Shown piece by piece: positions 16,105 to 41,921 of a DNA stretch of 46,499 bases; position 1 is the stretch's first letter, and each line of letters starts with the position of its first letter. This DNA is from a bacterium. Lineage in GTDB: Bacteria; Desulfobacterota; S145-22. The stretch is from contig JALTIG010000272.1 in NCBI GenBank assembly GCA_027004185.1, forward strand, positions 1-46,499. Reading direction: 5' to 3'. The position numbers were made by a program, and so were the translations under genes. Under the pieces are notes generated by a model. It was not told the origin of the DNA and made no database searches. It saw nothing but the letters and a program-made list of their open reading frames with translations.

Positions 16105-17760
16105 TTACCTCCTTTGATCTTTTTCGATAGGTTTGACTTCAATGAGATGTCCCCCAAGAATCCCAAGAATATCCTGGATGACGGGATGTTCTCTAAATCC
16201 CCCTTTAGTTGGTGTTTCTTGTCCATTTCCGGAAGGTGCTTTGATGTCCCCGCCTTCCTTGAAAACGACCCGCGCGACCTCGTGTCCGGTGAACTTTTCG
16301 AGAAGTGCCTTGAGCTGTGCCTCTTTTTCGGGGGTATCCAAGAGCTTCAAGGCAAATGATTGGGATGGGAACTGAATTTCAGCCACTTTGCCCCTCCACT
16401 GAAAGCCGGTTGCCTCGGAGAGTTGTACCGAAAGGGCCATGGCCCTTTTTTTGGCAAAGCGGAGAAACTCTTCAAAAAAGTTATCCACTGGTTCCTGTGG
16501 AGGGTGAGTATCCGTGGTATGACTGGTTGGTTTCCTGTGGTTGGAAGGTGAGGAGGAAAGTTGAGGAGAAACCGGTCCCGTTTCACGGGATTTGGGAGGG
16601 ATGGAGGCATCCTTACTGTAGCCGAGTTTCTCCTCCAATTGCCGGATCAGACTGTTTAAGGATACGGCCTGTTTTAGATGAATCATCCTGACCAGCGCCG
16701 TTTCTAACCCGATGCGTGCGTATTCACTCTGAAGGATGAACCGTTCTCTCTCATGGAGGAGGTGAATCCAGTGTTCGATCTGTTCAAGGGGGACGGGGCG
16801 GATCATCTCCTGCATCTGGTGAATTTCCTCACTCCCCCGTTCCAAAGGGATTTTCCGATCGCCCGCGGCTTTCAGTAGTAGTAGGTCGTGGAGAAAGAGG
16901 AGGAAGGAGCGGTAAAAATAGGCGAGATCGGTTCCCGCATCAACAAGTTGGTGGATCAAGGTAAGAAGCTCTTCAGGACTTTCTTTTATAATGCATTCCA
17001 GAACCTTCATCATCACGGTGCTGTCCACTACGGAGAGCAGAGACCGAGCGTCCTCGAACGTGATCCTTTTTTCTTCGGAGAGGAGAAAAAGCTGGTCCAG
17101 GATTACTTCGGCATCCCTCAGACTGCCGGTGGACTCCCGTGCCACGAGCATTAGGGCCTTTTCATCCGCCTCAAATCCCTCCTTTTTGATGATCTTCTCC
17201 AGGTGCATGATCATGTCTTGGAAAGGGATCCTCCGAAAGTCATAACGTTGGCACCGGGAAAGGATGGTTACAGGAATTTTGTGGGGTTCCGTGGTAGCAA
17301 GGATAAAGATGACATGTTCAGGAGGCTCTTCCAAGGTTTTTAATAGGGCATTAAAGGCCCCCTTTGACAACATGTGTACCTCGTCAATGATATAAACCTT
17401 GTACCGGAGTGTGACGGGAAGATACGCCACGGTTTCCTTTAATTTACGGATTTCATCCACGCCGTTATTGGAGGCCCCGTCGATTTCGTGGATGTCTAAA
17501 CTGGTTCCATGGGCAATCTCCGTGCATGCAGGGCATATGCCGCAAGGATCTGGAGTCGGGCCTCTTTCGCAATTCACGGCCTTGGCAAGGATTCGGGCCA
17601 CAGAGGTTTTCCCTACCCCGCGGGGTCCGCAGAAAAGGAGGGCATGAGCCACGCGGTTTTGTGTAAGTGCGTTTTTTAGGGTTTTGGTAATGACCTGCTG
17701 ACCAACAACCTCTTCAAAGTTTTGAGGACGCCATTTTCTCGCAAGGACAAGGTAAGACAT
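16105..17760 (-). CDS. dnaX: DNA polymerase III subunit gamma/tau
   Basis: Walker A GPRGVGKTS, a Zn module CGICPACTEI, and SRC (TILSRCQRY). Start placed at the ATG at 17760 because MSYLVLARKWRPQNFEEVVGQ aligns with the canonical DnaX N-terminus. The ORF track extends 4 codons further to 17772. Confidence 0.92.
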   Translation of the reverse strand: MSYLVLARKWRPQNFEEVVGQQVITKTLKNALTQNRVAHALLFCGPRGVGKTSVARILAKAVNCERGPTPDPCGICPACTEIAHGTSLDIHEIDGASNNGVDEIRKLKETVAYLPVTLRYKVYIIDEVHMLSKGAFNALLKTLEEPPEHVIFILATTEPHKIPVTILSRCQRYDFRRIPFQDMIMHLEKIIKKEGFEADEKALMLVARESTGSLRDAEVILDQLFLLSEEKRITFEDARSLLSVVDSTVMMKVLECIIKESPEELLTLIHQLVDAGTDLAYFYRSFLLFLHDLLLLKAAGDRKIPLERGSEEIHQMQEMIRPVPLEQIEHWIHLLHERERFILQSEYARIGLETALVRMIHLKQAVSLNSLIRQLEEKLGYSKDASIPPKSRETGPVSPQLSSSPSNHRKPTSHTTDTHPPQEPVDNFFEEFLRFAKKRAMALSVQLSEATGFQWRGKVAEIQFPSQSFALKLLDTPEKEAQLKALLEKFTGHEVARVVFKEGGDIKAPSGNGQETPTKGGFREHPVIQDILGILGGHLIEVKPIEKDQRR

Positions 17761-17782
17761 GGGGCTATCCATTTAAAGGGTC

Positions 17783-17902
17783 AACCGACTGGATAGCCAG
17801 GCACCCCTGCGGCACACACAAGATCCCACTACCGCTGCTTCCTTCCGGACCTGACGGGGTTCGCAGGTTCATGTTGCGCAGGACCCGGCTATCCAGGCCG
17901 TT
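17783..17902 (-). ncRNA. ffs: signal recognition particle RNA (small, 4.5S-type)
   Basis: Minus strand contains the domain IV core GUCAGGUCCGGAAGGAAGCAGC and its partner GUGUGCCGCAGG. It is closed by a 10-bp terminal helix CUGGAUAGCC/GGCUAUCCAG. The position upstream of dnaX is classical. Ends are approximate (about 5 nt either way). Confidence 0.85.
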
Positions 17903-17918
17903 CATCCTCATGTGTCCA

Positions 17919-18012
17919 TGGCGGAGAGAGAGGGATTCGAACCCTCGGTACCCCTTGTGAGGGTACACACGATTTCCAATCGTGCTCCTTCGGCCAGCTC
18001 GGACATCTCTCC
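17919..18012 (-). tRNA. tRNA-Ser (anticodon GGA)
   Basis: Hand-folded: acceptor GGAGAGA/TCTCTCC, anticodon stem CACGA/TCGTG with loop TTGGAAA, long variable arm (GTACCC...GGGTAC), T-loop GAGGG-TTCGAAT-CCCTC, and encoded CCA. Confidence 0.85.
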
Positions 18013-18023
18013 CCCTTTATTTA

Positions 18024-18051
18024 ATTATATCACATCCAACTTCGATGTGAA
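18024..18051 (-). promoter_or_regulatory. sigma-70-type promoter for tRNA-Ser(GGA)
   Basis: Minus strand reads TTCACA, 16 nt, TATAAT. The -10 box ends 11 nt before the tRNA 5' end. Confidence 0.45.
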
Positions 18052-18063
18052 GCTTTGGCAGTA

Positions 18064-18154
<91 letters not shown>

Positions 18155-25612: not shown

Positions 25613-28600
25613 TTAGCCAGTTGCCAGAATCTCTTGGATCTTTTTTGACAGTTTTTCCATTGAGAAGGGTTTCTGGATAAACCCATTACATCCCATTTCC
25701 ATAATCTTCGAGGCCTCTCCGTCGATACTGTATCCGCTTGCGAGCAGTACTTTGACTTGTGGATCTACCCCCCGTAGAGCCTGAAAGATGTCCCGTCCCC
25801 CCATCCCCGGCATGATCATATCCAGGATGACAAGATCAAATTTTCCGTTTTCTTTCTGAAAAATCTCGATCGCCTCCCGTCCCCTGTTGCATGTTTTCAC
25901 ATCGTAACCGAGGGCGACGAGAAGCTGTTGCCCGACATCAAGAATCCTTTCCTCATCGTCTATGAGGAGAATCCGTCCCTTTCCCTTGGCAAGTTTTTCT
26001 GGGATCTCACTTTTGGGTCGAACCTTTTTATTGCTGGCGGGGAGGTAGAACATGAATGTGCTCCCCTCCCCGGGTGCACTTTCAACCTCTATGGTCCCTC
26101 CGTGATTTTTGATAATGCCGTATACGGAAGCCAAACCCAAACCGGTCCCTCGCCCTTTCTCTTTTGTGGTGAAAAAGGGTTCAAAGATCCGTTTTTGGGT
26201 TTCCTTGTCCATCCCTATTCCCGTGTCGGTAATTCTAACCTTTACGTATCTTCCCGGACGCATGGTGCGAAGGTACCGGTCAGGTTTCCTGAAGGTTTTA
26301 TTCTTTGTTTGGATAAAGAGTTGCCCCCCGTTAGGCATGGCCTGCCAGGCATTAACAAAAAGGTTCAACAAAACTTGCTCGATTTGGCCCCGGTCAACCT
26401 CCACGGTCCACAGGTTATCCAAAAGTTTCAGATGAATTACTATCTCTTTTTTGGCTCTTCCGAAAAGCCTTACCTCCTTTTCAATCAAGGCATTGAGGTC
26501 GGTGGGTTCCACCTCGTATCGCCCGCCTCGCGCGAATCCTAGCAACTGCGAAGTCAGTTCTGACCCACTGCGAATAGATTCTTCTATATTTTGCAACCTT
26601 TCGTAATCAGGTGAATCTTCGGACATATTGAGTTTTAGCAGGGAGATAGAGCCCTGAATTCCCATCAGGATGTTATTGAAATCATGGGCTATTCCTCCTG
26701 CAAGTGTGCCGATCGCTTCCATCTTCTGAGCTTGAAGCATCTCTTCCCTTAGTTTTCTGATGCGCCTATCGGCCCGAATACGTTCCGTTACATCCCTTGC
26801 AATTCCGCTTATATATGGGGCCCCATCCTTGGGTTTGACCAGGATGCTTTTGTGTTCGAGGTAAACCTTTCTGCCGTTTTTCGTTATATAGACCGATATC
26901 CCTTGATGATGGCCTGTTTTTTTAACTGCTTCAAGGTACTCGCTATCATAAAGGGGCTTTAATTCTTCTTTCATGTATTCAGACCCTTTTAAGCCGATCA
27001 TTTCTTCCGGTGTGTAACCTAAGAGGTTAACCAGGGCCCGATTGACCGATAGGAAACGGCCTTCAAGATCTTGCTTGTATATCAGGTCAGATACAGAGTT
27101 AAACAGATCTCGGAACCGTTTTTCTGACTGGTGGATGATGGATTCCGCCTTGATACGTTCCGTGATATCCCGCAACACCACGAGTATTCCAGCAGGTTTT
27201 CCCGTATGATCGCTGTAACGGGAGGCGCTGATACTGAGGCTGAGGATTCGGCCGTCTTTTGTTAAGCGACGGGTTTCAAATCCATGAACCGGTGCACCGG
27301 TTTCGAGGAGTTTTTCGATGGCACCCACAGTAGTCTCTTTTTCTGATTCCGGGACGAAAGGGATTTTTTTGCCTTTAATCTCTTCGAATGTCCAGCCAAA
27401 GATTTTTGTAAAAAAGGGGTTGACAAATTCTGCTTCCCCTCGAAGGTTGTAAACGATGATGGCATCCGGAGAAGAATTCAAAAGGGATCGGTAAAGTTCT
27501 TCCTGTTGCTTGGATGCCTTGTAGAGTTCCCTGTAACGACTTTCTTCTTCCCGCAACCTTGCCTCGGCCTTTCTTTTCTCAGTTACATCCGAAAAAACAG
27601 ACATGATAGCGGGTTGCTCCTGGTAAGTGATAGGCACCGAAAAGACCTCTGCCTCGATGATATCCCCTTTAAACGTGATAAATTTTCCGATGGCCGGTTG
27701 CAGGGATTCTCCTTTGAGGAGTCTGTCGACCCGCTCCTGGACAAAAGGCAATACATCCGGATGAACAAGATCCTTTAATCCTTTCCTATTGAAGTCTTCC
27801 TTAGAACTTGCCTTGAACAGTTTCAGGGTGGCGGCGTTTACGAGGAAAAGGGTCTGCTTATTGTACACGGCTGTGGGGAGGGGAGAGGCCTCAATTAGCT
27901 GCCGGTACCTTTTTTCACTTTTTTTGAGCAGCTCTTCCATCCTTTTACGCTCGGACACATCTTCGGCCATGACCAGTACAGTGGGATTTTCCGGATCGGG
28001 CTCGAAAAGCGAATACCAGAGGTGGCAGTCAAACACCTCCCCATTTTTCCGAACCCACCTCGTTTCTACTTGGGCCGTCTTGTTCTCGGTACTGAGGAAT
28101 TTGAGGCGTCTTCCTGCCCTTCGGTATTCTTCATCATCTGGGTAAATTATCCGGGCCTCTTTTCCTATCAACACGCCGAGGGGATATCCGAGCATCCTTG
28201 CCATGGCTTGGTTGTGCCATAGCATGATCTTGTTTCTAACCAGACCGATGCCGAGCGGGGAGCTTTGAAAAACCCGTTCCAGACGTTTTTCACTTTTTTT
28301 GAGCTCTTCTCCTATCCGTACCCTTTCTGTGACGTTCTCGTAAAGGCCATAGGCACCGGCTACTTCCCCATCCACAATGGCTGGAACGGCATAGAATTCT
28401 ATATCGATAGGTGTTCCGTCTTTACGAATCCGTTTTCCCTTTCCTTGGATGGGGTGTCCCGATAAGGTTTTGGCTGAGTAGTCCTTGGCTTCCTGTAAGG
28501 ATTCGTCATTGCCGGCTATGAGCTCATCCAGGTTTTTACCTATAATTTCCGATTGCTTGTATTGGAAGAGACTTTCAAATACAGGGTTGCAGGAGATAAC

Positions 28601-28771
28601 CCTGAGATTTTTATCAACCGTGACAATTCCGAGTGATGAGTGCTGTATCAAGGATCTTAAGAGTTTTTCTTCTCTTTCCAGGCCGACAAGGGTTTTTTTT
28701 ATCCTGGTAAGCTCTTTCTTCAGGTTCTGAATTGTTTGATTGTCACTTTTGGGATCTGTTTTTTCAGGCAT
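25613..28771 (-). CDS. multi-PAS hybrid sensor histidine kinase with C-terminal receiver
   Basis: 1052 aa with repeated PAS/PAC modules (several ...DVTERxxAE... boundaries). H-box GGIAHDFNNIL, N/G boxes (NLFVNAWQAM, DTGIGM, GTGLGL), and receiver RILLIDDEE...DLVILDMIMPGMGG. Confidence 0.9.
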   Translation of the reverse strand: MPEKTDPKSDNQTIQNLKKELTRIKKTLVGLEREEKLLRSLIQHSSLGIVTVDKNLRVISCNPVFESLFQYKQSEIIGKNLDELIAGNDESLQEAKDYSAKTLSGHPIQGKGKRIRKDGTPIDIEFYAVPAIVDGEVAGAYGLYENVTERVRIGEELKKSEKRLERVFQSSPLGIGLVRNKIMLWHNQAMARMLGYPLGVLIGKEARIIYPDDEEYRRAGRRLKFLSTENKTAQVETRWVRKNGEVFDCHLWYSLFEPDPENPTVLVMAEDVSERKRMEELLKKSEKRYRQLIEASPLPTAVYNKQTLFLVNAATLKLFKASSKEDFNRKGLKDLVHPDVLPFVQERVDRLLKGESLQPAIGKFITFKGDIIEAEVFSVPITYQEQPAIMSVFSDVTEKRKAEARLREEESRYRELYKASKQQEELYRSLLNSSPDAIIVYNLRGEAEFVNPFFTKIFGWTFEEIKGKKIPFVPESEKETTVGAIEKLLETGAPVHGFETRRLTKDGRILSLSISASRYSDHTGKPAGILVVLRDITERIKAESIIHQSEKRFRDLFNSVSDLIYKQDLEGRFLSVNRALVNLLGYTPEEMIGLKGSEYMKEELKPLYDSEYLEAVKKTGHHQGISVYITKNGRKVYLEHKSILVKPKDGAPYISGIARDVTERIRADRRIRKLREEMLQAQKMEAIGTLAGGIAHDFNNILMGIQGSISLLKLNMSEDSPDYERLQNIEESIRSGSELTSQLLGFARGGRYEVEPTDLNALIEKEVRLFGRAKKEIVIHLKLLDNLWTVEVDRGQIEQVLLNLFVNAWQAMPNGGQLFIQTKNKTFRKPDRYLRTMRPGRYVKVRITDTGIGMDKETQKRIFEPFFTTKEKGRGTGLGLASVYGIIKNHGGTIEVESAPGEGSTFMFYLPASNKKVRPKSEIPEKLAKGKGRILLIDDEERILDVGQQLLVALGYDVKTCNRGREAIEIFQKENGKFDLVILDMIMPGMGGRDIFQALRGVDPQVKVLLASGYSIDGEASKIMEMGCNGFIQKPFSMEKLSKKIQEILATG

Positions 28772-28976
28772 AGGGTTTACCTTTGAAAGGGTTTGTGAAA
28801 AACTTTTGCCTGTACTGCTTATAACCTATCAAAGATTATCCGAAATCGCAAAGGCTCCCTTTTATCCTCCATGAGGAAGCCCTTTGTCACTTATGAAAGC
28901 ATGGACTTTTCATGGCTTGACAGGGGGGGGAGGGGATTGATATCTTTTGTTTCACTGAGTTTGGGAAGGGGTACCT

Positions 28977-29306
28977 ATGAAAGAGGGGATTTTGCTTTAT
29001 CTTACACAGAAGAAGACATGCACAGATGAGCAGTTGGGGAGGTTTATCGACCTAAATGGCCTTGCTGGGGTTCCCCTGGTTGTGACAGGGGGAGCAGAAG
29101 GCACCATAAGTTTTTACGATGCCTACAAGATGCTGGGAGAAAAGGGTGTAGATATTGTTGAATGTTTCTCAGCCAGGATTAACGATGAAGGTGAGCTTGA
29201 ACTGTTGGCTTCCAACATCACTCTTCCGGTTGGGATTGACCTCCTGAAATTTTGTAGGCCCGAAGAATTGGGGCTTTCTGATGAGGTTACGCAGAATAAT
29301 ACCTGA
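28977..29306 (+). CDS. hypothetical protein (109 aa)
   Basis: ORF with GGGAAGGGG upstream and a TTGACA-containing upstream region. No recognisable motif. Coding status rests on ORF length and position only. Confidence 0.4.
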   Translation: MKEGILLYLTQKKTCTDEQLGRFIDLNGLAGVPLVVTGGAEGTISFYDAYKMLGEKGVDIVECFSARINDEGELELLASNITLPVGIDLLKFCRPEELGLSDEVTQNNT

Positions 29307-29321
29307 TCATCCTTTTTATGG

Positions 29322-29350
29322 TTGACATTGCCATGCATTTGATGTATGTG
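29322..29350 (+). promoter_or_regulatory. candidate sigma-70 promoter of rplM-rpsI
   Basis: TTGACA (29322-29327), 17 nt, TATGTG (29345-29350), about 30 nt before the rplM start. Confidence 0.4.
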
Positions 29351-29379
29351 GAGCTTCCGATAGAAAGGAAGGATGGGAC

Positions 29380-29826
29380 GTGATGAAGAAAACGACAATA
29401 TTGAAGCCTGCTGATGTCAAAAGAAGGTGGGTTCTCGTCGACGCAGAAGGGAAAATCCTCGGAAAGATGGCTAGTGAAATAGCGGCAATCCTTCGGGGGA
29501 AGACAAAGCCAACCTATTCTCCCCATATGGACGTGGGCGATTTCGTGGTAGTGATAAACGCGGAGAAGGTTGAAATGACGGGACGCAAATGGACGCAAAA
29601 GATGTACTATTATCACACAGGCTACCCCGGAGGCATTAAGGGGATCCCGGCTGAAAAGCTGCGCCAGAAACATTCGGAGGACATTATTCGCAGAGCGGTG
29701 TGGGGAATGCTTCCCAAGAACAGGTTGGGGAGAAAATTGATTAAAAAGTTAAAGGTTTATGCGGGGCCGGAACACCCTCATGCGGCACAACAGCCTGAGC
29801 CCCTACGATCGGAGATAGGAGCGTAA
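29380..29826 (+). CDS. rplM: 50S ribosomal protein L13
   Basis: [31 protein letters not shown] is the L13 N-terminus. GTG at 29380 or ATG at 29383 could be the start. AGGAAGGA RBS. Confidence 0.93.
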
Positions 29827-29829
29827 AAT

Positions 29830-30219
29830 ATGGTGAAACGTTACTACGCAACAGGAAGGCGTAAGGCCTCAGTGGCACGTGTATGGATGCAGGAAGGGAC
29901 CGGTATGATCATCATCAATAAGCGTCCAGCGGATGAGTATTTTGGTACAGAGTCAGGACGCTCGGTGATTCAGCAGCCGTTTGAGATTACCGGAACTGTA
30001 GGCAAATTTGATGTCATGGTGAATGTTCAGGGTGGTGGAATTACAGGACAGGCCGGGGCAATTCGACATGGCATTACCCGAGCCTTGATGGTTTATGATA
30101 GGACCTTGCGCCAGCCCTTGAAAAAGGCGGGTTTTGTTCGGCGGGACCCCAGGGTGAAGGAACGAAAGAAATACGGTCAGCGAGGTGCACGGGCCAGGTT
30201 CCAGTTTTCAAAACGTTAA
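29830..30219 (+). CDS. rpsI: 30S ribosomal protein S9
   Basis: 129 aa. YYATGRRK near the N-terminus and the C-terminus [16 protein letters not shown], typical of S9. Confidence 0.93.
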
Positions 30220-30229
30220 AGGGATGCCA

Positions 30230-30256
30230 GGGGGGGCCATCTGGCCCCCTTTTTTA
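30230..30256 (+). terminator. Rho-independent terminator after rpsI
   Basis: GGGGGCCA..TGGCCCCC GC-rich hairpin followed by T6. Confidence 0.8.
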
Positions 30257-30308
30257 TCCGTTTGTCGCTCTAAGAGTTTTAGAAGGTTTTTCTCTATGTG
30301 AGGGAATC

Positions 30309-31396: not shown

Positions 31397-34042
31397 GTGA
31401 GCGGGAAACAGAAAGGGGTCAGACAGACCCCCATGGTGCGGCAGTATCTTCAGATCAAGTCCCAGGTTCCGGACACGATCCTCTTTTTCAGGATGGGTGA
31501 TTTTTATGAGATGTTTTTCGAAGATGCCCTGGTCGCTTCTAAGGTCCTTGATATTGCATTAACTTCGAGGGATAAGAACAAGGAAGGGGGTGTCCCCTTG
31601 TGTGGGATCCCGTACCATGCCTGCGATCAATACCTTGCGAAGCTTATCCGTGAGAATTACCGGGTTGCCATTTGCGAGCAGGTGGAGGATCCCAAAACAA
31701 CCAGGGCTATCGTCAAGCGGGAGATCGTTCGGATTGTAACCCCTGGGTTGCCCGTCGGTCTGGAATCTATCCTTGAAGCCGATAATATCTTCATTGCTTC
31801 CCTCTATCCGATCAATGGAATTATGGGTTTGGCCTTTCTCGATATCCTGACAGGAGACCTGAAACTTTTTTCTGACAGGAGCGAGGAGCTTGTATTGGAT
31901 CATCTACAGGTTCACCAACCGAGGGAGATTCTTGTTTCCCGCCAACTTCTCATGAATGGGTGGCCCTGGGCGGGAAAACTGAAGAAGATGGCACTGGTAA
32001 CCCCCTTCGATTTGACCGATATTCAGGACTTTGAGCGTTTGGATGACCTCTTCAAAGCGGTGACACGACCGGGTGGGGAGACACCAAAAGCCCTGTCTGA
32101 AGTGGAGTGTGGGACCCTCAGGTTTCTCCTCGCCTACCTTGTTTGGACGAAAAATGATCACATTGAGCATGTTAAGAGTCTTCAAGTGACCCTTCGCCGT
32201 CCCTATCTAAGGATTGATGATTTTACCCGTCGCAACTTGGAGATCTTTGAACCTTTGAATGGTAAATCGAAACGAGCTACTCTCCTGTCCGTTTTTGATG
32301 AGACCTGTACCCCCATGGGAAAGCGGCTCATGCGGGAGTGGTTACGATACCCACTCCAGGAAGTGGAGGAGATCAACCGCCGTCTTGATGCTGTCGAGGT
32401 GTTGCGGAGCCGGGGGGGGCAGCGCGGACGCCTCCGAGGTATCCTCGGAAAGATGTCGGATCTGGAACGGTTGGTTGGCCGAGTAACGTCCGAGCGTGCC
32501 AACGCGCGTGACCTCGTCCAGCTTAAGGATTCCCTGGCGTTTCTTCCCACCCTACATGAGGCACTCAAGGTGTTTGATGTGCCCCTTATCAGGGAAATCC
32601 GTGACAGGCTTGATCCCATGGATGAGTTGGTTGACCGTCTTTCGACTACACTTGTGGATGCGCCACCTATCAGTATTCTGGAAGGAGGGATGATTCGAAA
32701 GGGTGTGTCAGACGAGTTGGATGAGCTCTGGAAGATTCGAGCCTCAGGGAAAAACTGGATGATTAAGCTCGAGGCTCAGGAGCAGAAGAGAACGGGGATC
32801 AGCTCCTTGAAGATTCGTTATAACCGGGTATTCGGGTATTACATCGAGGTAACAAAATCAAATCTCCACCTTGTGCCGGAGGATTACCAACGGAGGCAGA
32901 CCTTGGTTAATGCGGAAAGGTTTATTACCCCCCAGTTGAAGGAGATGGAGGAAAAGGTCCTTTCCGCGGAGGAACGGATTCAAAAGCTGGAATATTCCCT
33001 ATTTGTGTCGCTCCGGGAGGAGGTCAAGGGACACACAGAGAAGATTCAGGAGATTGCTGCATCCCTCGCGGTTCTGGATGTCCTCCTCTCCCTTGGAGAG
33101 ATTGCTCAGCGATACCGGTACTCCCGGCCGATTGTAATGAAAGACAGTCGTTTATGGATTAAACAGGGTCGGCATCCCGTGGTGGAACAGATTAACCTTC
33201 AGGAATCCTTCGTCCCTAACGATACCGAGCTGGACAGTGAACAGAACCAGATCATGCTAATTACGGGACCCAATATGGCAGGAAAGTCGACCTACATCCG
33301 GCAGGTAGCACTGATTGCCCTGATGGCCCATGTGGGCTCTTTCGTACCGGCGGAGGAGGTGCACATGGGGATCATCGATCAAATATTTACCAGGGTAGGG
33401 GCCTCAGACAACCTTGCCATGGGCCTCTCTACCTTCATGGTGGAAATGCAGGAGACTGCCACGATCCTGGCTAATTCAACTGTGAAGAGCCTGATTGTGC
33501 TGGACGAGATCGGGCGGGGAACGAGCACATTTGATGGTTTGAGTATCGCCTGGGCCATCGTGGAATATCTCCATGACCGGTACAAGGAGGGGGGGACAAA
33601 AACCCTTTTTGCCACCCATTACCATGAGCTGACCGATCTCGCCCGGTTGAAACCTCGGGTCCACAACTGGAACGTGGCTGTAAAGGAGTGGAACGATGAG
33701 ATTATTTTTTTGCGGAGATTGGCCAGAGGAGGCATGAACCGAAGCTACGGGATCCAGGTGGCACGGCTCGCCGGACTGCCTCAGAGTGTGATTAAGCGGG
33801 CGAAAGAGATCCTGTTCAACCTGGAAAAGGGTGAGTTGACGGTTTCCGGTGTTCCCACGATTTCAGTTTCTTCACACGAGGAGCGGCCCAGACCTGCCTT
33901 TGTGCAACGGGAACTTTTTGCTGCTCGGCACTCCCCTGTGGAGGAAGCGATCAGGAAGATATCTATCGATCAAATAACCCCTCTTGAAGCGTTGAATCTC
34001 CTGCATCGGTTCCAGGAGTTGTTGAAGAAAAAAGAGGCTTAG
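31397..34042 (+). CDS. mutS: DNA mismatch repair protein MutS
   Basis: 881 aa. N-terminus ..TPMVRQYLQIKSQ.PDTILFFRMGDFYEMFFEDA, Walker A GPNMAGKST, and DEIGRGTSTFDG. GTG start. Confidence 0.93.
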   Translation: MSGKQKGVRQTPMVRQYLQIKSQVPDTILFFRMGDFYEMFFEDALVASKVLDIALTSRDKNKEGGVPLCGIPYHACDQYLAKLIRENYRVAICEQVEDPKTTRAIVKREIVRIVTPGLPVGLESILEADNIFIASLYPINGIMGLAFLDILTGDLKLFSDRSEELVLDHLQVHQPREILVSRQLLMNGWPWAGKLKKMALVTPFDLTDIQDFERLDDLFKAVTRPGGETPKALSEVECGTLRFLLAYLVWTKNDHIEHVKSLQVTLRRPYLRIDDFTRRNLEIFEPLNGKSKRATLLSVFDETCTPMGKRLMREWLRYPLQEVEEINRRLDAVEVLRSRGGQRGRLRGILGKMSDLERLVGRVTSERANARDLVQLKDSLAFLPTLHEALKVFDVPLIREIRDRLDPMDELVDRLSTTLVDAPPISILEGGMIRKGVSDELDELWKIRASGKNWMIKLEAQEQKRTGISSLKIRYNRVFGYYIEVTKSNLHLVPEDYQRRQTLVNAERFITPQLKEMEEKVLSAEERIQKLEYSLFVSLREEVKGHTEKIQEIAASLAVLDVLLSLGEIAQRYRYSRPIVMKDSRLWIKQGRHPVVEQINLQESFVPNDTELDSEQNQIMLITGPNMAGKSTYIRQVALIALMAHVGSFVPAEEVHMGIIDQIFTRVGASDNLAMGLSTFMVEMQETATILANSTVKSLIVLDEIGRGTSTFDGLSIAWAIVEYLHDRYKEGGTKTLFATHYHELTDLARLKPRVHNWNVAVKEWNDEIIFLRRLARGGMNRSYGIQVARLAGLPQSVIKRAKEILFNLEKGELTVSGVPTISVSSHEERPRPAFVQRELFAARHSPVEEAIRKISIDQITPLEALNLLHRFQELLKKKEA

Positions 34043-36165: not shown

Positions 36166-36315
36166 GACAACCTCCCACGTCTTTGAGGTGGCTTTTATCC
36201 TTTACGTGTGGGGATGTCAAGAAGTAAGGGTTTGAGAAGGGTAAAGGTTGGGGTGGTGGCTTGAAAACTCTCCATAAGTATATTATACAGGGGCCGAATC
36301 GGGGAGGTTGAACAG

Positions 36316-37404
36316 TTGAGGCGACCGATATATCCCTTTTCCGCCATCGTAGACCAGGAAGGGATGAAAAAGGCGCTGATCTTAACGGTGATAGACCCAA
36401 CGCTGGGAGGTGTTCTCATCCGAGGGCAACGTGGGACTGCGAAGAGCACTGCGGTCCGGGCATTGGCGCAGCTTTTGCCATCTATTGAGGTGGTCAAAGG
36501 GTGTCCCTTCCACTGCCACCCCTCGGATCCCAGCCTTATGTGTGAGGCCTGTCGCAAGAGGTTCCGGGAAATGGGGACAGCGCTTCCTTCCATAAGCCAG
36601 AAGATGCGTGTTGTGGAACTTCCAATTGGGGCAACGGAAGATCGGGTTATTGGAACGCTGGATATGGAGACTGCACTGCAGACAGGCCAGAGAAGATTTG
36701 AACCTGGAATCCTTGCGGAGGTTCATCGCGGATTTCTCTATGTGGATGAGATTAACCTACTGCCCGATCACCTCGTCGATATCCTTCTTGATGCAGCGGC
36801 CATGGGGGTGAATTATGTGGAGCGCGAGGGGATTTCTTTTTCTCATCCCAGTCGTTTCGTTCTGGTCGGTACCATGAATCCGGAAGAAGGGGAACTGCGT
36901 CCCCAGTTGATGGACCGCTTTGGGCTTTGTGTTGAGGTCAGGGGGATTGAAGACCCCGAGCAACGCCGTGAAGTTGTAATCCGCCGGTTGGCATATGACC
37001 GAGACCCGAAGGGGTTTCTTGAACATTGGCGTTCCCAGGATGAAAGGTTGGGGCTGGCGATTTCAAGGGCTCAACAATCGGTTTCGTCTGTGGAGCTCTC
37101 TTCCGAGGCTCTCAAGCTGATCTCTCAGATCTGTTCTCACCTAAAGATAGATGGACACCGTGGAGATATCACGATGGCCAAGGCCGCCGCAGCCCTGGTG
37201 GCCTACAATGGCCATACACGGGTTCGGGAGCAGGATGTCAGAGAAGCAGCGATCCTCGTGCTTCCTCATCGTATCCGCCGGTCACTGATGGATGATGAAG
37301 TTCCCTTTTCCTTGGAGATGGTAGATCAGGCCATTGAGAAGGCTAAGAGGGAGGGATCCCTGGCTGAGATTCCTTCACCTCCGAAAAAAAAAAGACCTCA
37401 ATAA
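36316..37404 (+). CDS. ChlI/BchI-like AAA+ ATPase (Mg-chelatase I-subunit family)
   Basis: TTG start with GGGGAGG 8 nt upstream. YPFSAIVDQEGMKKAL, P-loop GQRGTAKST (Ala where the GK glycine is expected), Walker B LYVDEINLL, and GTMNPEEGELRPQLMDRFG. A Cys4 insert lies at C63/C67/C76/C79. The ORF ends ...PPKKKRPQ just after an A10 run. Confidence 0.85.
   Translation: MRRPIYPFSAIVDQEGMKKALILTVIDPTLGGVLIRGQRGTAKSTAVRALAQLLPSIEVVKGCPFHCHPSDPSLMCEACRKRFREMGTALPSISQKMRVVELPIGATEDRVIGTLDMETALQTGQRRFEPGILAEVHRGFLYVDEINLLPDHLVDILLDAAAMGVNYVEREGISFSHPSRFVLVGTMNPEEGELRPQLMDRFGLCVEVRGIEDPEQRREVVIRRLAYDRDPKGFLEHWRSQDERLGLAISRAQQSVSSVELSSEALKLISQICSHLKIDGHRGDITMAKAAAALVAYNGHTRVREQDVREAAILVLPHRIRRSLMDDEVPFSLEMVDQAIEKAKREGSLAEIPSPPKKKRPQ
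37384..37393 (+). repeat. A10 homopolymer (A_AAA_AAA slippery context) at the 3' end of the ChlI-like ORF
   Basis: Counted directly: ccg-aaaaaaaaaa-gacc. In the 0 frame it reads AAA AAA AAA AGA. Confidence 0.95.
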
Positions 37405-37514
37405 GTCTACGTGAGAGCAGGGATAGGGTTACCACGCGAGTTTTCCCCATTGGTGAAGCCATCTATAACCTGACATTACCGGAGGCCAAGACCAAAAGAT
37501 CCCTACAGGCTCCG

Positions 37515-38264
37515 GTGGGGAGGTCTGTCAAGGCACCCATACCGTTTGAGGGTGCGTATGTACGAAGTGTCCTGCCCAGAGGGAAACCAAAGGATATTGC
37601 GTTAGATGCCACGCTGAGGACGGCGGTCCTGTTTCAGGAGAGGCGCGGAAAGGGAAGGGATCAACCCCTGATTGTGCGTCCCGGGGATATACGGGTGAAA
37701 TGGCGACAGAGGAAGGTGGGTCGGTGTGTGCTTTTTGTTGTGGATGCCAGCGGTTCCATGGGGGTCCAAGCCCAGATGCGAGAGACCAAGGCTGCTATTT
37801 TATCTCTTCTTCACAGGGCATACCAGAATCGGGATCGGGTGGGTCTGGTTGTATTTCAAGGGATTCGGGCTCGCCTGGTACTTCCGCCGACCGGTAGTGT
37901 GGATCTGGCTCGGAGATATCTGAGGGTTATCCCGACGGGAGGGAAGACGCCATTGGCCTCCGGACTGGCTTTGGGATTGGCGACGATAAAAATGGAAAGG
38001 CTCAAGCACCCGGGAGAAAGGGCCTTGATGATTATCGTATCGGATGGCCGGGCCAATGTTGCTCTCAATGGGGAGGATCCACTGGATGATGCGGTTATGG
38101 TGGCCAAACGGATCTGGAGGAGTGGGGTGGATGTATTGTTCCTGGATACGGAGGTTGATCCCTGCGCCTTTGGATATGGATGGGATTTAGCTAGAATCAT
38201 GAAAGCAACTTACCTTTCACTTGAACAATTGGACGCAAGGCGTCTCGTTTCGCTCATTACATGA
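37515..38264 (+). CDS. VWA domain protein (ChlD/BchD C-terminal-half-like)
   Basis: MIDAS motif VLFVVDASGSMG, preceded by DIALDATLRTA. The first canonical start is the GTG at 37515, which has no SD. The same frame is open back to 37368, so the true 5' end is uncertain (see finding at 37368-37520). Confidence 0.75.
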   Translation: MGRSVKAPIPFEGAYVRSVLPRGKPKDIALDATLRTAVLFQERRGKGRDQPLIVRPGDIRVKWRQRKVGRCVLFVVDASGSMGVQAQMRETKAAILSLLHRAYQNRDRVGLVVFQGIRARLVLPPTGSVDLARRYLRVIPTGGKTPLASGLALGLATIKMERLKHPGERALMIIVSDGRANVALNGEDPLDDAVMVAKRIWRSGVDVLFLDTEVDPCAFGYGWDLARIMKATYLSLEQLDARRLVSLIT

Positions 38265-39916
38265 AAATGCCCGCTTCCTTTTCCCGTTCACATGCGACCC
38301 GCGAGTGTTTGGTGCGCTTATGGGTGGCGCCGGATCTTAAGGATATAGAGGACCAGGTCCGGAAGATCAGCGAGTTGGGTATTCGCAGTGACGCTAATAC
38401 GGTGGTTGTCAAGGAAAACAGGCTTCGTACTATATACAAGGCACATTTTCCCTTTTTTGAGGGTCCCGTTCTGGTTAAATCCTTTCATTTCCCAACCATG
38501 AGACGCACTCTGCGCGGGGTGTTTACCCCTTATGCCGATCGAGAATTGAAAAATGCTAAACAGGCTCAAAGGCGGGGTATTCCCGTTGTCGAACCGCTTT
38601 TCCTTATCCGGAAGAGGGAGGGATGGTTTCCAGCTGTTTCCCTCGTTGGATACCGATATCTGGAGGGGGTTTCTCTCTACCAGTGGTTTTCGGAGGGGAA
38701 GGGGCTGCCCGAAGAAGAAAAGGAGCAGCTACTGCGTGCCGCAGGTCTGTTTGCTGCCCTCTTGCACAAAAAGGGGGGACTACACAATGATTTTCATGCG
38801 GGAAACCTGTTAGTAAGAGATAATGGAACTCTAGTCCTAACCGATCTGTATCCCCTTTCTTTCAGCAGAAACCCTTCCCTAAAGAGCAGGATGGAAGGCT
38901 TATCACAACTTATCGCATCTTTGGCCCCTTTTGTGGGAAGGAAAGGGATCGACGTACTCCTTGACACGTATTGTAAGGTATCTAAAGTTCACCAGCCCTC
39001 AACCTTTAAAGAGAGGATCCTGGCACGCCATGTGGAGATTCGACGTCATCATGAAAAGAGCAGGTCCGCCCGCTGTATGAAGAACAGTTCCCAGTTTTAC
39101 CAGTTTCGAGATGACTCATGGCGCATCGCGGCGAGGCGGTTTATTACAGTAGATAAGATACAGGAACTTCTTGGTGAATTTAACGCTCTCTACCAGAGCC
39201 ACCCGGAAAGGGCCCTGAAGAATGCCCCTGAATCTGTGGTCTACATAGTAAAAAGACCTGGATCGGAGTGTGAGTGGTGTGTTAAATGGTATCGAAAGCG
39301 GGGTGGGCTAGATGATCTCAAGGAAGGGATTAGAGGAGGGCGTGCCTTACGGGCATGGAGGGCTGGGAATGGGCTGCTGTTCCGTGGGATGCCGGTGGTG
39401 ATTCCATATGCCATGGTTCAAACTAAGCAGGGTGGATTTTTGATTGCCGAGGCCGCAGAGGGGAAGGAATTGGATCGCTTGCTCTCCCGGTGGTTAGAGT
39501 TAAAGGATGGGGAGATTCGGCACCGCATGTACCCTTTAGCTGAGGAGTTGGGACATCTCTTGGGACAGCTTCATGAAAAGGGGATCTTTCATGCGGATCT
39601 GAAGGCATGTAACATAGTGGTAAAAGAGGATAAGAAGAAATTTTCTATCAAGCTGTTGGACTATGATCGCGTGAAATTTTTTGATATCCTACCTCAAAGA
39701 TTTATGATAAAAAACCTTGTTCAGCTTAATAATTCTATCCCAAAGGGGGTTTCCCGAAGCCTCCGGTTTCGGTTTCTTCTAGCCTATGTGGAGAAACATC
39801 CCATTATTAGGCTGAATGTGAAGGATCTTTTCCGGATGGTGTGGCATGGAAGCCAGGGGAATGCTATCGTGTATGTAACGGATCAAGGAGACAGGGAGGA
39901 AGATTGGGGATCCTAA
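38261..39916 (+). CDS. protein with two tandem lipopolysaccharide-kinase (Kdo/WaaP/InaA-type) domains
   Basis: 551 aa. First catalytic loop LHNDFHAGNLLV with LVLTDL; second FHADLKACNIVV with KLLDYD. The ATG overlaps the VWA stop (ATGA). Confidence 0.65.
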   Translation: MKMPASFSRSHATRECLVRLWVAPDLKDIEDQVRKISELGIRSDANTVVVKENRLRTIYKAHFPFFEGPVLVKSFHFPTMRRTLRGVFTPYADRELKNAKQAQRRGIPVVEPLFLIRKREGWFPAVSLVGYRYLEGVSLYQWFSEGKGLPEEEKEQLLRAAGLFAALLHKKGGLHNDFHAGNLLVRDNGTLVLTDLYPLSFSRNPSLKSRMEGLSQLIASLAPFVGRKGIDVLLDTYCKVSKVHQPSTFKERILARHVEIRRHHEKSRSARCMKNSSQFYQFRDDSWRIAARRFITVDKIQELLGEFNALYQSHPERALKNAPESVVYIVKRPGSECEWCVKWYRKRGGLDDLKEGIRGGRALRAWRAGNGLLFRGMPVVIPYAMVQTKQGGFLIAEAAEGKELDRLLSRWLELKDGEIRHRMYPLAEELGHLLGQLHEKGIFHADLKACNIVVKEDKKKFSIKLLDYDRVKFFDILPQRFMIKNLVQLNNSIPKGVSRSLRFRFLLAYVEKHPIIRLNVKDLFRMVWHGSQGNAIVYVTDQGDREEDWGS

Positions 39917-40698
39917 AAACACTTGCGCTTGACGCCAGTGATCTATACAAATACCGGGTCCTGATCTGGACCTTGACAGTTAAGGAACTGAAGCTTCGAT
40001 ACCGGGGATCAGTCCTTGGGTTTTTTTGGTCGTTTTTGAATCCATTGCTTCTGATGGCGGTTTATGCCCTGGTTTTTTCCGTTTACATGCGGATACAGAT
40101 GGAACATTATGCGGTTTTCATGTTTTGTGGGTTATTGCCCTGGATCTGGTTTTCCGCTTCGCTTCTGGAAGGTGTGAACAGCATCGTTGGAAAGGGAGAT
40201 CTTATTACCAAAGCCTTTTTCCCCCCACAGATCCTTCCCCTGGTAACACTTTTTTCCAATCTTATCAATTTTCTCTTGAGCCTGCCCGTTCTTTTTATCT
40301 TTCTCTGGGCGTGCCATATTTACCCCGCATGGCCACTCGTGACTCTGCCGCTACTCCTGTTTGCCCAGTTTCTTTTCACCCTGGGGCTGGCTTTGGCCCT
40401 CTCTGCTCTCAACGTTCATTTTCGTGACCTGACGCACATTCTGGGGAATCTTTTGACCCTTTGGTTTTTTGTTTGTCCTATCATTTATCCCTTAAAACAG
40501 GTCCCGGAGCGTTTCCGGTTTCTCATCGATTTTAATCCCATGGGCCTTTTGACGCTTATGTATCAGGATGTTTTCTTCTACAATAAGCTGCCGAATTTAA
40601 GGATCCTTGGGTGGTTGATTATTCTTGGGGGAGGGATTGTTATTATTGGAAACGCTATTTTCAATGTCTACCGTGAATCGTTTGCGGAGGACCTATGA
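39904..40698 (+). CDS. wzm: ABC-2 type polysaccharide/O-antigen exporter permease
   Basis: The conserved N-terminal block ..YRVLIWTLTVKELKLRYRGSVLGFFWSFLNPLL and six TM segments. Start proposed at the TTG at 39904 (GGGAGGA upstream; 264 aa). The ORF track ATG at 39841 would overlap the kinase gene by 76 nt. Confidence 0.8.
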   Translation: MGILKTLALDASDLYKYRVLIWTLTVKELKLRYRGSVLGFFWSFLNPLLLMAVYALVFSVYMRIQMEHYAVFMFCGLLPWIWFSASLLEGVNSIVGKGDLITKAFFPPQILPLVTLFSNLINFLLSLPVLFIFLWACHIYPAWPLVTLPLLLFAQFLFTLGLALALSALNVHFRDLTHILGNLLTLWFFVCPIIYPLKQVPERFRFLIDFNPMGLLTLMYQDVFFYNKLPNLRILGWLIILGGGIVIIGNAIFNVYRESFAEDL

Positions 40699-41921
40699 GT
40701 GAAATAGCTATCGAGGTTGATCATGTCTCAAAGCGCTTCAAAAGGTCTGTTCTTAGAAACAACTATGTCACCCTGAAGGATGTCCTGCTGCGCAGGCGAC
40801 GGGTTTCAAAACGGGATCGTTTTATTGATGTCTTAGAGGATATTTCGTTTGCAGTTCCAAAGGGTAGGACGTTTGGGATCATCGGGAAGAATGGTTCAGG
40901 CAAGAGCACTTTACTGAAACTGATTGCGGGGATCTACCGTCCTGACTCTGGGCGTATCAGGGTACGTGGAAAACTCTCTTCCCTGATAGAGCTAGGGGCG
41001 GGATTTCACCCCGAGTTTACGGGGCGTGAGAATGTCTACATTAATGGGATCCTTTTGGGGTTAAGCAAGCAACAGGTCCAAGAACGATTTGATCGGATTG
41101 TCCAGTTTGCGGAGTTGGAGGATTTCATCGATATGCCTGTTAGGACCTATTCGTCTGGAATGTATATGCGCCTTGGGTTTTCCGTGGCTGTGCATGTAAA
41201 CCCTGAGATCCTTATTATTGATGAAGTGTTGGCCGTGGGCGATGAATCTTTCGGACACAAGTGTAAGGAGATTATCCGGCAGTTTAAGGCGTCCGGGAAG
41301 ACGATCGTAATGGTCACCCATGATATGTCTGCGGTGGAGCGCTGGTGTGATGAGGCGCTATGGCTTAACAAAGGTCAAATAGCTGACCGGGGAGAACCGC
41401 GCCGCATTATCGACTGTTACCGAGAGAATGTTAAGGAGGATGAGGAACAAAACTTTGAGGTGGCGCATCAAATTGGGACCACCATTATGAGTGATCGATG
41501 GGGGGACCGGCAGATTGAGATCACCGAAGTCAGGCTTCTCAATGAGGCAAACATGGAACAGTCGATTTATCACATAGGTGAACCAACCATTATAGAGATG
41601 ACCTACCATATCCATCGTACTCCTACGCAACCCGTCGTATTCGGTGTGGGGATCTTTACTCCTGAGAACATCTGTTGTTATGGGACCAATACGGATATTG
41701 AAAAGATCCCCATTCAGTTGAACGAGGATAATGGAAAGGTCCGATTTGTCATAAAAGAAAATCTATTGATTGAAGGCACCTATTTTCTGGATGTGGCTGT
41801 GCATGCGGAGGATGGGTATCCCTTTGATTACATCCGGCATCAAACTGCCTTTGCCATTCGGAGTGGTATTAAGGATGTAGGGATCTGCCGACTGTCTCAC
41901 GATTGGGAGGTTAACATATAA
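40695..41921 (+). CDS. wzt: polysaccharide/O-antigen ABC exporter ATP-binding protein with C-terminal extension (Wzt-like)
   Basis: Walker A GKNGSGKST, signature YSSGMYMRL, Walker B ILIIDEVLAVGD, and a roughly 150-aa C-terminal beta-rich domain. The ATGA overlaps the wzm stop. Confidence 0.85.
   Translation: MSEIAIEVDHVSKRFKRSVLRNNYVTLKDVLLRRRRVSKRDRFIDVLEDISFAVPKGRTFGIIGKNGSGKSTLLKLIAGIYRPDSGRIRVRGKLSSLIELGAGFHPEFTGRENVYINGILLGLSKQQVQERFDRIVQFAELEDFIDMPVRTYSSGMYMRLGFSVAVHVNPEILIIDEVLAVGDESFGHKCKEIIRQFKASGKTIVMVTHDMSAVERWCDEALWLNKGQIADRGEPRRIIDCYRENVKEDEEQNFEVAHQIGTTIMSDRWGDRQIEITEVRLLNEANMEQSIYHIGEPTIIEMTYHIHRTPTQPVVFGVGIFTPENICCYGTNTDIEKIPIQLNEDNGKVRFVIKENLLIEGTYFLDVAVHAEDGYPFDYIRHQTAFAIRSGIKDVGICRLSHDWEVNI

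Follow-up and report, generated by a model that had tools for sequence, protein, structure and literature searches.

When one called gene ends at a run of ten adenines and the next lies in the -1 frame just beyond it, are there two genes or only one? The question is raised by positions 36,316 to 38,264, on the forward strand, of a 46,499-nucleotide stretch of DNA from a bacterium of the Desulfobacterota (GTDB lineage S145-22; NCBI GenBank assembly GCA_027004185.1, contig JALTIG010000272.1), the whole of which is referred to here as the window. An open reading frame (ORF) for a ChlI-like protein (ORF1) ends just past the A10 tract, and an ORF for a protein with a VWA domain follows in the -1 frame. 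From comparative sequence analysis, we consider it likely that the locus is a single chlD-type gene and that its A10 tract is a site of programmed slippage, through which two proteins are made. Standard decoding would yield a 362-aa ChlI-like AAA+ subunit, ending three codons past the tract, and a shift to the -1 frame would yield a 649-aa ChlD-like subunit, in which the same AAA+ module is followed by a linker and a VWA domain with its metal ion-dependent adhesion site (MIDAS). The shift could be made either by RNA polymerase, through the addition of one A to give an A11 mRNA, or by the ribosome, through a -1 slip on A_AAA_AAA; in an assembled motor, the short product would be the I-type partner and the long one the D-type, in the manner of Mg/Co chelatases.

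ORF1 (36316..37404, + strand, 0 frame, 362 aa) starts with a TTG codon located 8 nt downstream of a Shine-Dalgarno (SD)-like GGGGAGG (36301-36307) and is assigned as a ChlI/BchI-like AAA+ module with lid from the ORF listing and from its Pfam (AAA_lid_2, Mg_chelatase, and AAA_5) and NCBIfam matches, the latter covering positions 1-329 of the 641-position model TIGR02442. Its residues 2-326 align with the solved structures of ChlI (8osf and 6l8d) and BchI (1g8p), and in this structure alignment its C-terminus falls approximately where free-standing ChlI ends. Walker B (LYVDEINLL), the ELRPQLMDRFG motif, and the sensor region are conserved in the alignment with 8osf and 1g8p, and Walker A reads GQRGTAKST (36424-36450), with A in place of the G of ChlI. 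No second ChlI/CobS-like gene was found among the window ORFs scanned against Pfam, and none appears among the genes called over 3-6 kb around the chlD-like gene at the orthologous loci. The 3' end of ORF1 reads CCG AAA AAA AAA AGA CCT CAA TAA (stop at 37402-37404), such that the first A of the tract (37384..37393, +) occupies codon position 1 and places A_AAA_AAA in the 0 frame, while the G that follows the tract gives AAG in the -1 frame. The latter frame contains a TGA at 37365-37367 and is thereafter open until the TGA at 38262-38264; from the first of these stops to that of ORF1, both frames are open over an overlap of 37 nt (37368..37404, +). The initial annotation of this DNA, made from the sequence without database searches, had described the tract at the end of ORF1, with its heptamer in the 0 frame, and a -1 frame without stops between 37368 and the end of the VWA ORF at 38264; both descriptions are correct to the nucleotide.

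The VWA ORF, as called, runs from a GTG at 37515 to 38264 (+, 249 aa); it is matched by Pfam VWA_2 and VWA and by TIGR02442, carries the MIDAS motif DASGS at 37743-37757, and corresponds, as the C-terminal part of the locus, to the VWA domain of BchD (2x31). Between the tract and this GTG lies a spacer (37392..37514, +) that reads as a linker segment in the -1 frame (KTSISLRESRDRVTTRVFPIGEAIYNLTLPEAKTKRSLQAP) and contains no start codon. GTG 37515 had been proposed to be the first start in that frame and to lack an SD sequence, and so it proves: it is the only ATG, GTG, or TTG in the -1 frame between 37368 and 37517, and none of GGAG, GAGG, AGGA, AAGG, or GGTG occurs within the preceding 20 nt. 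The accompanying suggestion that the spacer is coding and resembles a ChlD linker gains support from a hidden Markov model (HMM) search, in which positions 382-641 of TIGR02442 are matched by the -1-frame translation from its residue 22 onwards, that is, from 28 codons upstream of the GTG and hence within the spacer. It also gains support from the orthologues described below, which are either fused (both parts in one frame) or split (the VWA part out of frame): in all split genes the spacer is open in the VWA frame and encodes a conserved RVTTRVFxIGExxYDLTFPE. The ratio of nonsynonymous to synonymous substitution rates (dN/dS) in that frame is approximately 0.13 for the spacer, both between the window and the fused gene L085 and between the two split genes L081 and L082, and 0.08-0.10 for the remaining VWA part. 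These ratios point to purifying selection on the spacer as read in the VWA frame, and they do so even where both of the genes compared are split. No promoter-like or terminator-like sites were returned by a scan of the interval between ORF1 and the VWA ORF; together with the open frame and the constraint on the spacer, this excludes decay and argues strongly against independent initiation at the GTG. Pseudogene decay was thus rejected (dN/dS 0.08-0.13). The supposed 249-aa VWA gene represents the C-terminal portion of the 649-aa ChlD-like product and, as annotated, is without its true N-terminal 41 residues.

Joined through the -1 frame, the two parts form a conceptual fusion of 649 aa (..SPPKKKKTSISLRE..), for which the predicted junction peptide is PPKKKKTSISLR, in the context ..SPPKKKKTSISLR.., and which matches TIGR02442 in one stretch over positions 1-641. 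A ChlD-like fusion of about 650 aa with an AAA+, linker, and VWA architecture, as originally envisaged, is therefore found to be collinear with the entire model. The score of 736.8 bits lies among those of natural fused orthologues (719-747.5 bits), all of them below the curated TIGR02442 cut-off of 779.45; likewise, the fusion scores 429.4 against TIGR02031 (BchD/ChlD; cut-off 499.55), and ORF1 scores 430.2 against TIGR02030 (BchI/ChlI; cut-off 466.95). By the curated cut-offs, the fusion thus falls outside strict membership of TIGR02442 and TIGR02031, and ORF1, whose motifs are conserved, scores below that of TIGR02030. The nearest homologues (P0001-P0015) are single ORFs of 647-649 aa that are spanned by the fusion over 100% of their length at 67-83% identity, and all read ..EKKK.. 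across the junction. In P0016 and P0024, the protein has 363 aa and ends just past KKK, as ORF1 does, and the split form of P0024 is identical in three independent metagenome assemblies (L082/L083/L084).

The comparison set comprises 12 distinct orthologous genes, including that of the window, with pairwise amino acid identities of 65-84%; their DNA was retrieved gene by gene (loci L081-L086 and L167-L175), and among their sources are the NCBI MAGs GCA_027073795.1, GCA_027055435.1, and GCA_054024735.1, the Logan runs SRR33214773 and SRR6056610, and the JGI metagenomes 3300028843 and 3300003543. Broad scans of metagenome and genome contigs with the fusion added little to this set, in that nearly all of the matches listed were at 40-51% identity, L001 being the sole close relative among them. 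Exactly ten A's stand at the junction in all 12 orthologues, preceded by G or C and followed by G, within DNA that is otherwise poorly conserved. In nine of the genes the tract is in frame, reading GAA AAA AAA AAG (EKKK), which puts A_AAA_AAG in the 0 frame; in the remaining three (the window, L081, and L082), the tract reads AAA AAA AAA AGn and the VWA part is out of frame. The distance from the conserved AE(I/M) codons to the tract is 12 nt in the split genes and 13 nt in eight of the nine fused ones (L168 and L172 having other codons at the I/M position); the ninth, L173, gives no readable spacing for want of conserved residues upstream. As read from these spacings, the difference between fused and split genes is a base missing in the variable upstream linker and not a difference in tract length. 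No orthologue has a -1-frame stop upstream of a good VWA start, and the same A10 is found in fused and split genes alike; both observations accord with the recoding put forward in the initial annotation, which had named a -1 slip of the ribosome or a slip of RNA polymerase as its routes and assembly error, phase variation, and a pseudogenising split as alternatives. The recoding is further supported by the collinear homology, the constraint on the spacer, and the conservation of the tract. By contrast, the miscount of A10 for A11 that had been offered as an alternative is not indicated.

The presence of an A10 tract is not in itself remarkable. Although it is the sole homopolymer of at least nine bases in the 46.5-kb window, dinucleotide shuffles produced a mean of 0.51 such tracts per window, with at least one in 31 of 100 shuffles; mere occurrence was therefore rejected as evidence, and the significance of the tract must rest on position and conservation. 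Chance is exceeded by where the tract stands, between the two ORFs, and by its constancy across the 12 orthologues. The tract is encoded entirely by A's in every gene, yet elsewhere in these genes AAA accounts for only 42% of Lys codons and GAA for 38% of Glu codons, and synonymous sites among the orthologues are saturated (pairwise proportion of synonymous differences 0.56-0.83), which indicates selection at the nucleotide level. A neighbour-joining tree (no bootstrap) places the window nearest to the fused gene L085 (83%) and apart from L081 and L082, and the base preceding the tract differs among the split genes (G or C). Because of this placement and this difference, the split state probably arose at least twice, although the evidence on this point is suggestive only.

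Which machine would slip can be approached through what is, and is not, conserved around the tract. In all 12 genes, both frames other than that of the VWA part stop within 1-19 codons past the tract; 23 of the 24 stop distances are shorter than the gene-specific median open length, and the chance of both frames closing so early is 0.00-0.23 per gene. Consequently, whichever way a slip left the VWA frame, the product would be compact and ChlI-sized. Searches for a stimulatory RNA structure with single-sequence folds and shuffles gave z-scores of -1.84 to +1.69 and no fold common to the orthologues, the strongest values (-1.4 to -1.8) belonging to three of the 140-nt segments spanning the tract; RNAalifold on the 12 orthologues returned a consensus of -0.98 kcal/mol with nothing conserved or significant, and no SD-like stimulator upstream of the tract is conserved among the 12. 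RNA polymerase slippage is favoured because the full ten A's are conserved, beyond the length of a heptamer, because A10 is kept in two different codon phases, because both alternative frames close early, and because no stimulatory RNA structure is conserved. On these grounds we lean slightly towards transcriptional rather than ribosomal slippage as the main route, and a ribosomal -1 shift, at A_AAA_AAA in the window gene or at A_AAA_AAG in fused ones, may contribute. A purely ribosomal shift at these two sites, with no share for RNA polymerase, is possible but would be the less expected outcome: an in-phase slippery heptamer is present in both arrangements, and the published chlD cases have been termed programmed ribosomal frameshifting (PMC3711429; PMC9227772), whereas ten A's rather than seven are conserved, neither a downstream hairpin nor an upstream SD-like stimulator is conserved, and an early stop also closes, in eight of the nine fused genes, the frame that only deletion of an A or a +1 shift can reach (within 2-3 codons in seven and 12 in L167; 19 in L173). 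Moreover, transcriptional and translational effects were not distinguished by the published reporters. As both routes yield an identical protein, with four Lys at the junction, they are separable by cDNA only.

Several considerations weigh against slippage from a single gene as we propose it. In E. coli, ribosomes shift only modestly on A_AAA_AAA when no stimulator is present, and the window sequence rests on one assembly. We infer the occurrence of slippage, its efficiency, and the identity of the slipping machine from the arrangement and conservation of the locus. The in-frame A_AAA_AAG of the fused orthologues keeps ribosomal frameshifting in play, and conservation of the tract in those genes might stem in part from the conserved EKKK peptide, which would nevertheless give no reason for GAA and AAA being the only codons used.

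Three further explanations dispense with recoding altogether. In one, the split is an artefact of assembly or sequencing and the true gene is fused in frame, through A11 or one extra base in the linker. Homopolymers are indeed error-prone, nine of the 12 orthologues are in frame, and A11 would make the window read PPKKKKTS in frame; however, the A10 of the window equals the tract length of every fused orthologue, the difference residing in a non-homopolymer base of the upstream linker, and the layout of 12 nt followed by A10 recurs in L081 and in the L082/L083/L084 group, with its three identical and independent metagenome assemblies. An artefact is accordingly very improbable, and a simple homopolymer miscount as the main account of the locus was rejected, given that A10 occurs in fused and split genes alike. 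In another, which we judge equally improbable, the genes are truly split or the locus is a young pseudogene, with ORF1 and a VWA protein from GTG 37515 made independently and the tract incidental. Gene callers do annotate 245-aa VWA genes in split orthologues, and chlI and chlD are commonly separate genes elsewhere; against this, the 41 codons before the GTG are open, homologous to the ChlD linker, and under purifying selection between split genes that are 84% identical, no start codon or SD sequence is available upstream of the GTG, and the GTG lies 111 nt past the ORF1 stop, too distant for coupling, while the low dN/dS of the VWA part speaks against decay.

The last of these explanations, phase variation at the DNA level, would have slipped-strand mispairing during replication toggle the A10 between split (I only) and fused (D) genotypes. 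A10 is a hotspot for replication slippage, and both frame states are present among relatives of the window, but neither the 12 distinct orthologues nor the 17 assemblies include an A9 or A11 variant, and the frame states differ outside the tract. An off state would, moreover, still need a partner for the I subunit, and the protein is cytoplasmic, unlike the products of typical phase-variable surface genes; phase variation is therefore the least credible of the three, if only marginally so.

Slippage on A10 from one chlD-type gene, the reading preferred here, has consequences for annotation and beyond. The two called genes, of 362 and 249 aa, become one chlD-type gene with slippage, and the clade provides a natural experiment for chlD genes with frameshifts (fs-chlD), as an identical A10 is found either in frame or out of frame. 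That the two coexist suggests slippage of sufficient efficiency for a gene to persist in either arrangement, and it favours RNA polymerase as the machine responsible.

The operon in which the gene resides is equally constant. In all 12 orthologous loci, the chlD-like stop overlaps by 4 nt (ATGA) the start of a gene for a protein of approximately 549 aa with two Kdo/WaaP-like kinase domains, which is followed by Wzm (ABC2_membrane) and then Wzt (ABC_tran and Wzt_C); in the window, these genes occupy 38261-41921, and the kinase protein, assigned with Pfam and sharing the ATGA overlap, has 551 aa (38261..39916, +). The upstream neighbours, on the other hand, vary among the 12 loci. No gene for a CobN-Mg_chel domain protein, CobN, or ChlH was found in the window or in the locus neighbourhoods of the 12 orthologues, the only regions covered. 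The gene would work like a chlD motor gene, for which a chelatase role is a candidate only. The lack of a nearby cobN or chlH and the constant coupling to a kinase and an O-antigen-type ABC exporter bear on the role of ChlI/ChlD proteins that have no large subunit (PMC9227772). A bolder proposal, which we regard as doubtful, is that A10 acts as a frame-independent, bidirectional device for transcriptional slippage that would give the same two proteins whether the gene is in or out of frame; the lineage would have flipped at least twice, resetting the default short:long ratio, and the ChlI/ChlD-like motor would serve the translationally coupled dual Kdo-like kinase and the Wzm/Wzt glycan exporter in place of a tetrapyrrole chelatase, a non-chelatase job.

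Other homopolymers in the window merit brief mention. A G8 at 32412-32419 (+) lies inside mutS (31397-34042; ..SRGGQR..) and could make this mismatch-repair gene prone to indels there. A T8 (28693-28700) is found in the first codons, approximately 70 nt from the start, of a gene for a large PAS/HisKA/receiver hybrid kinase (25613-28771, minus strand), and the 1.5-kb stretch 28772-30308, which has short ORFs only, contains a second G8 (28923-28930) about 150 nt upstream of the kinase gene.

With regard to known systems, the closest by protein family are the CobN-associated ChlID (TIGR02442) and BchD/ChlD (TIGR02031) proteins, which share with the fusion a collinear AAA+, linker, and VWA architecture and a MIDAS motif of the form DxSxS (here DASGS), and whose models are its best HMM matches, over full model length. 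The window fusion differs from them in scoring below both curated cut-offs and, as regards the CobN partners of TIGR02442, in its gene neighbourhood: homologues at 44-47% identity (L010, L013, L014, and L036) have cobN directly upstream, whereas the window has no cobN or chlH nearby.

The fs-chlD phenomenon itself is said to have been published by Antonov in Molecular Biology and Evolution in 2020. Earlier, 23 magnesium-chelatase genes from six genera, both bacterial and archaeal, were described with a -1 frameshift on poly-A; in each case the annotation had shown two neighbouring genes, both about 1 kb long, and fused homologues were noted (Antonov et al., 2013; PMC3711429). In E. coli reporters of chlD tracts, frameshifting reached 63% with A11, 40% with A9, and 10% with A7 (PMC3711429), and A_AAA_AAR in Mg-chelatase genes is under strong purifying selection (Atkins et al., 2016; PMC5009743). 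Signals in fs-chlD usually include a downstream structure, and in some anaerobes fs-chlD is present although the large subunit and the pathway are both missing (Kuznetsov et al., 2022; PMC9227772). The window gene resembles these cases in that a ChlI-like ORF of roughly 1 kb is followed, in the -1 frame, by a VWA ORF, in that the overlap holds an A-rich site for the shift (A_AAA_AAR, 7-11 A's) on which purifying selection acts, in the existence of fused homologues, and in the absence of cobN and chlH, which some published cases ("stage 1") also lack (PMC9227772). It differs in belonging to a lineage of uncultured Thermodesulfobacteriota-like metagenome-assembled genomes (MAGs) rather than to the genera named in 2013, in having no downstream structure found in its clade, in the single invariant A10 common to its fused and split orthologues, and in being embedded in a kinase-Wzm-Wzt operon. 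The shared tract and the conserved operon, with no cobN, are the two unusual points. All of the testable defining features of fs-chlD are thus present save the usual downstream structure.

Distant fused chlD-like genes also carry in-frame A9-A10 tracts at the AAA+/linker junction (L028:997, L029:7056, L037:5977, L111:4065, L112:4068, L115:1533, L126:4050, and L140:1957; also L014, L104, and L109), L029 being from a Chloroflexus sp. MAG and L037 from a Chloroflexaceae MAG; in the first eight, the alternative frames stop 0-4 and 3-19 codons past the tract. In-frame slippery tracts may be a widespread route to the short subunit.

The second point of comparison is dnaX, from which the tau and gamma proteins are made. 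There, too, two AAA+ products with a common N-terminal module come from one gene with an A-run, and both arrangements exist, the long form being made by standard decoding or by recoding only. The variants comprise -1 programmed ribosomal frameshifting on A_AAA_AAG in E. coli, transcriptional slippage on A9 in Thermus thermophilus, and a two-ORF type with A10; RNA polymerase slippage has been assigned to both Thermus dnaX and the two-ORF genes (PMC3711429), and in both systems A9-A10 without a strong stimulator points to RNA polymerase. The window has a dnaX of its own (16105-17772, minus strand), which carries AAAAAAAG at gene nt 1321, approximately codon 441 of 555 (window ~16433-16452), directly followed by a perfect palindrome (GGGCCATGGCCC), with the -1 frame stopping 22 codons on; this may be a tau/gamma recoding site, though the heptamer is out of the canonical phase. 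Directly upstream of that gene (17792-18154, minus strand) are a small, bacterial-type signal recognition particle (SRP) RNA (17792-17890) and two tRNA-Ser genes (GGA and CGA), all ordinary. In protein family and function dnaX is unrelated to the chlD-like gene, in which the extra C-terminal part is a VWA/MIDAS domain; the analogy, already drawn in the initial annotation, is one of mechanism only. In summary, the mechanism has already been published for chlD, and the window is a new, unusually clean, and well-conserved comparative example.

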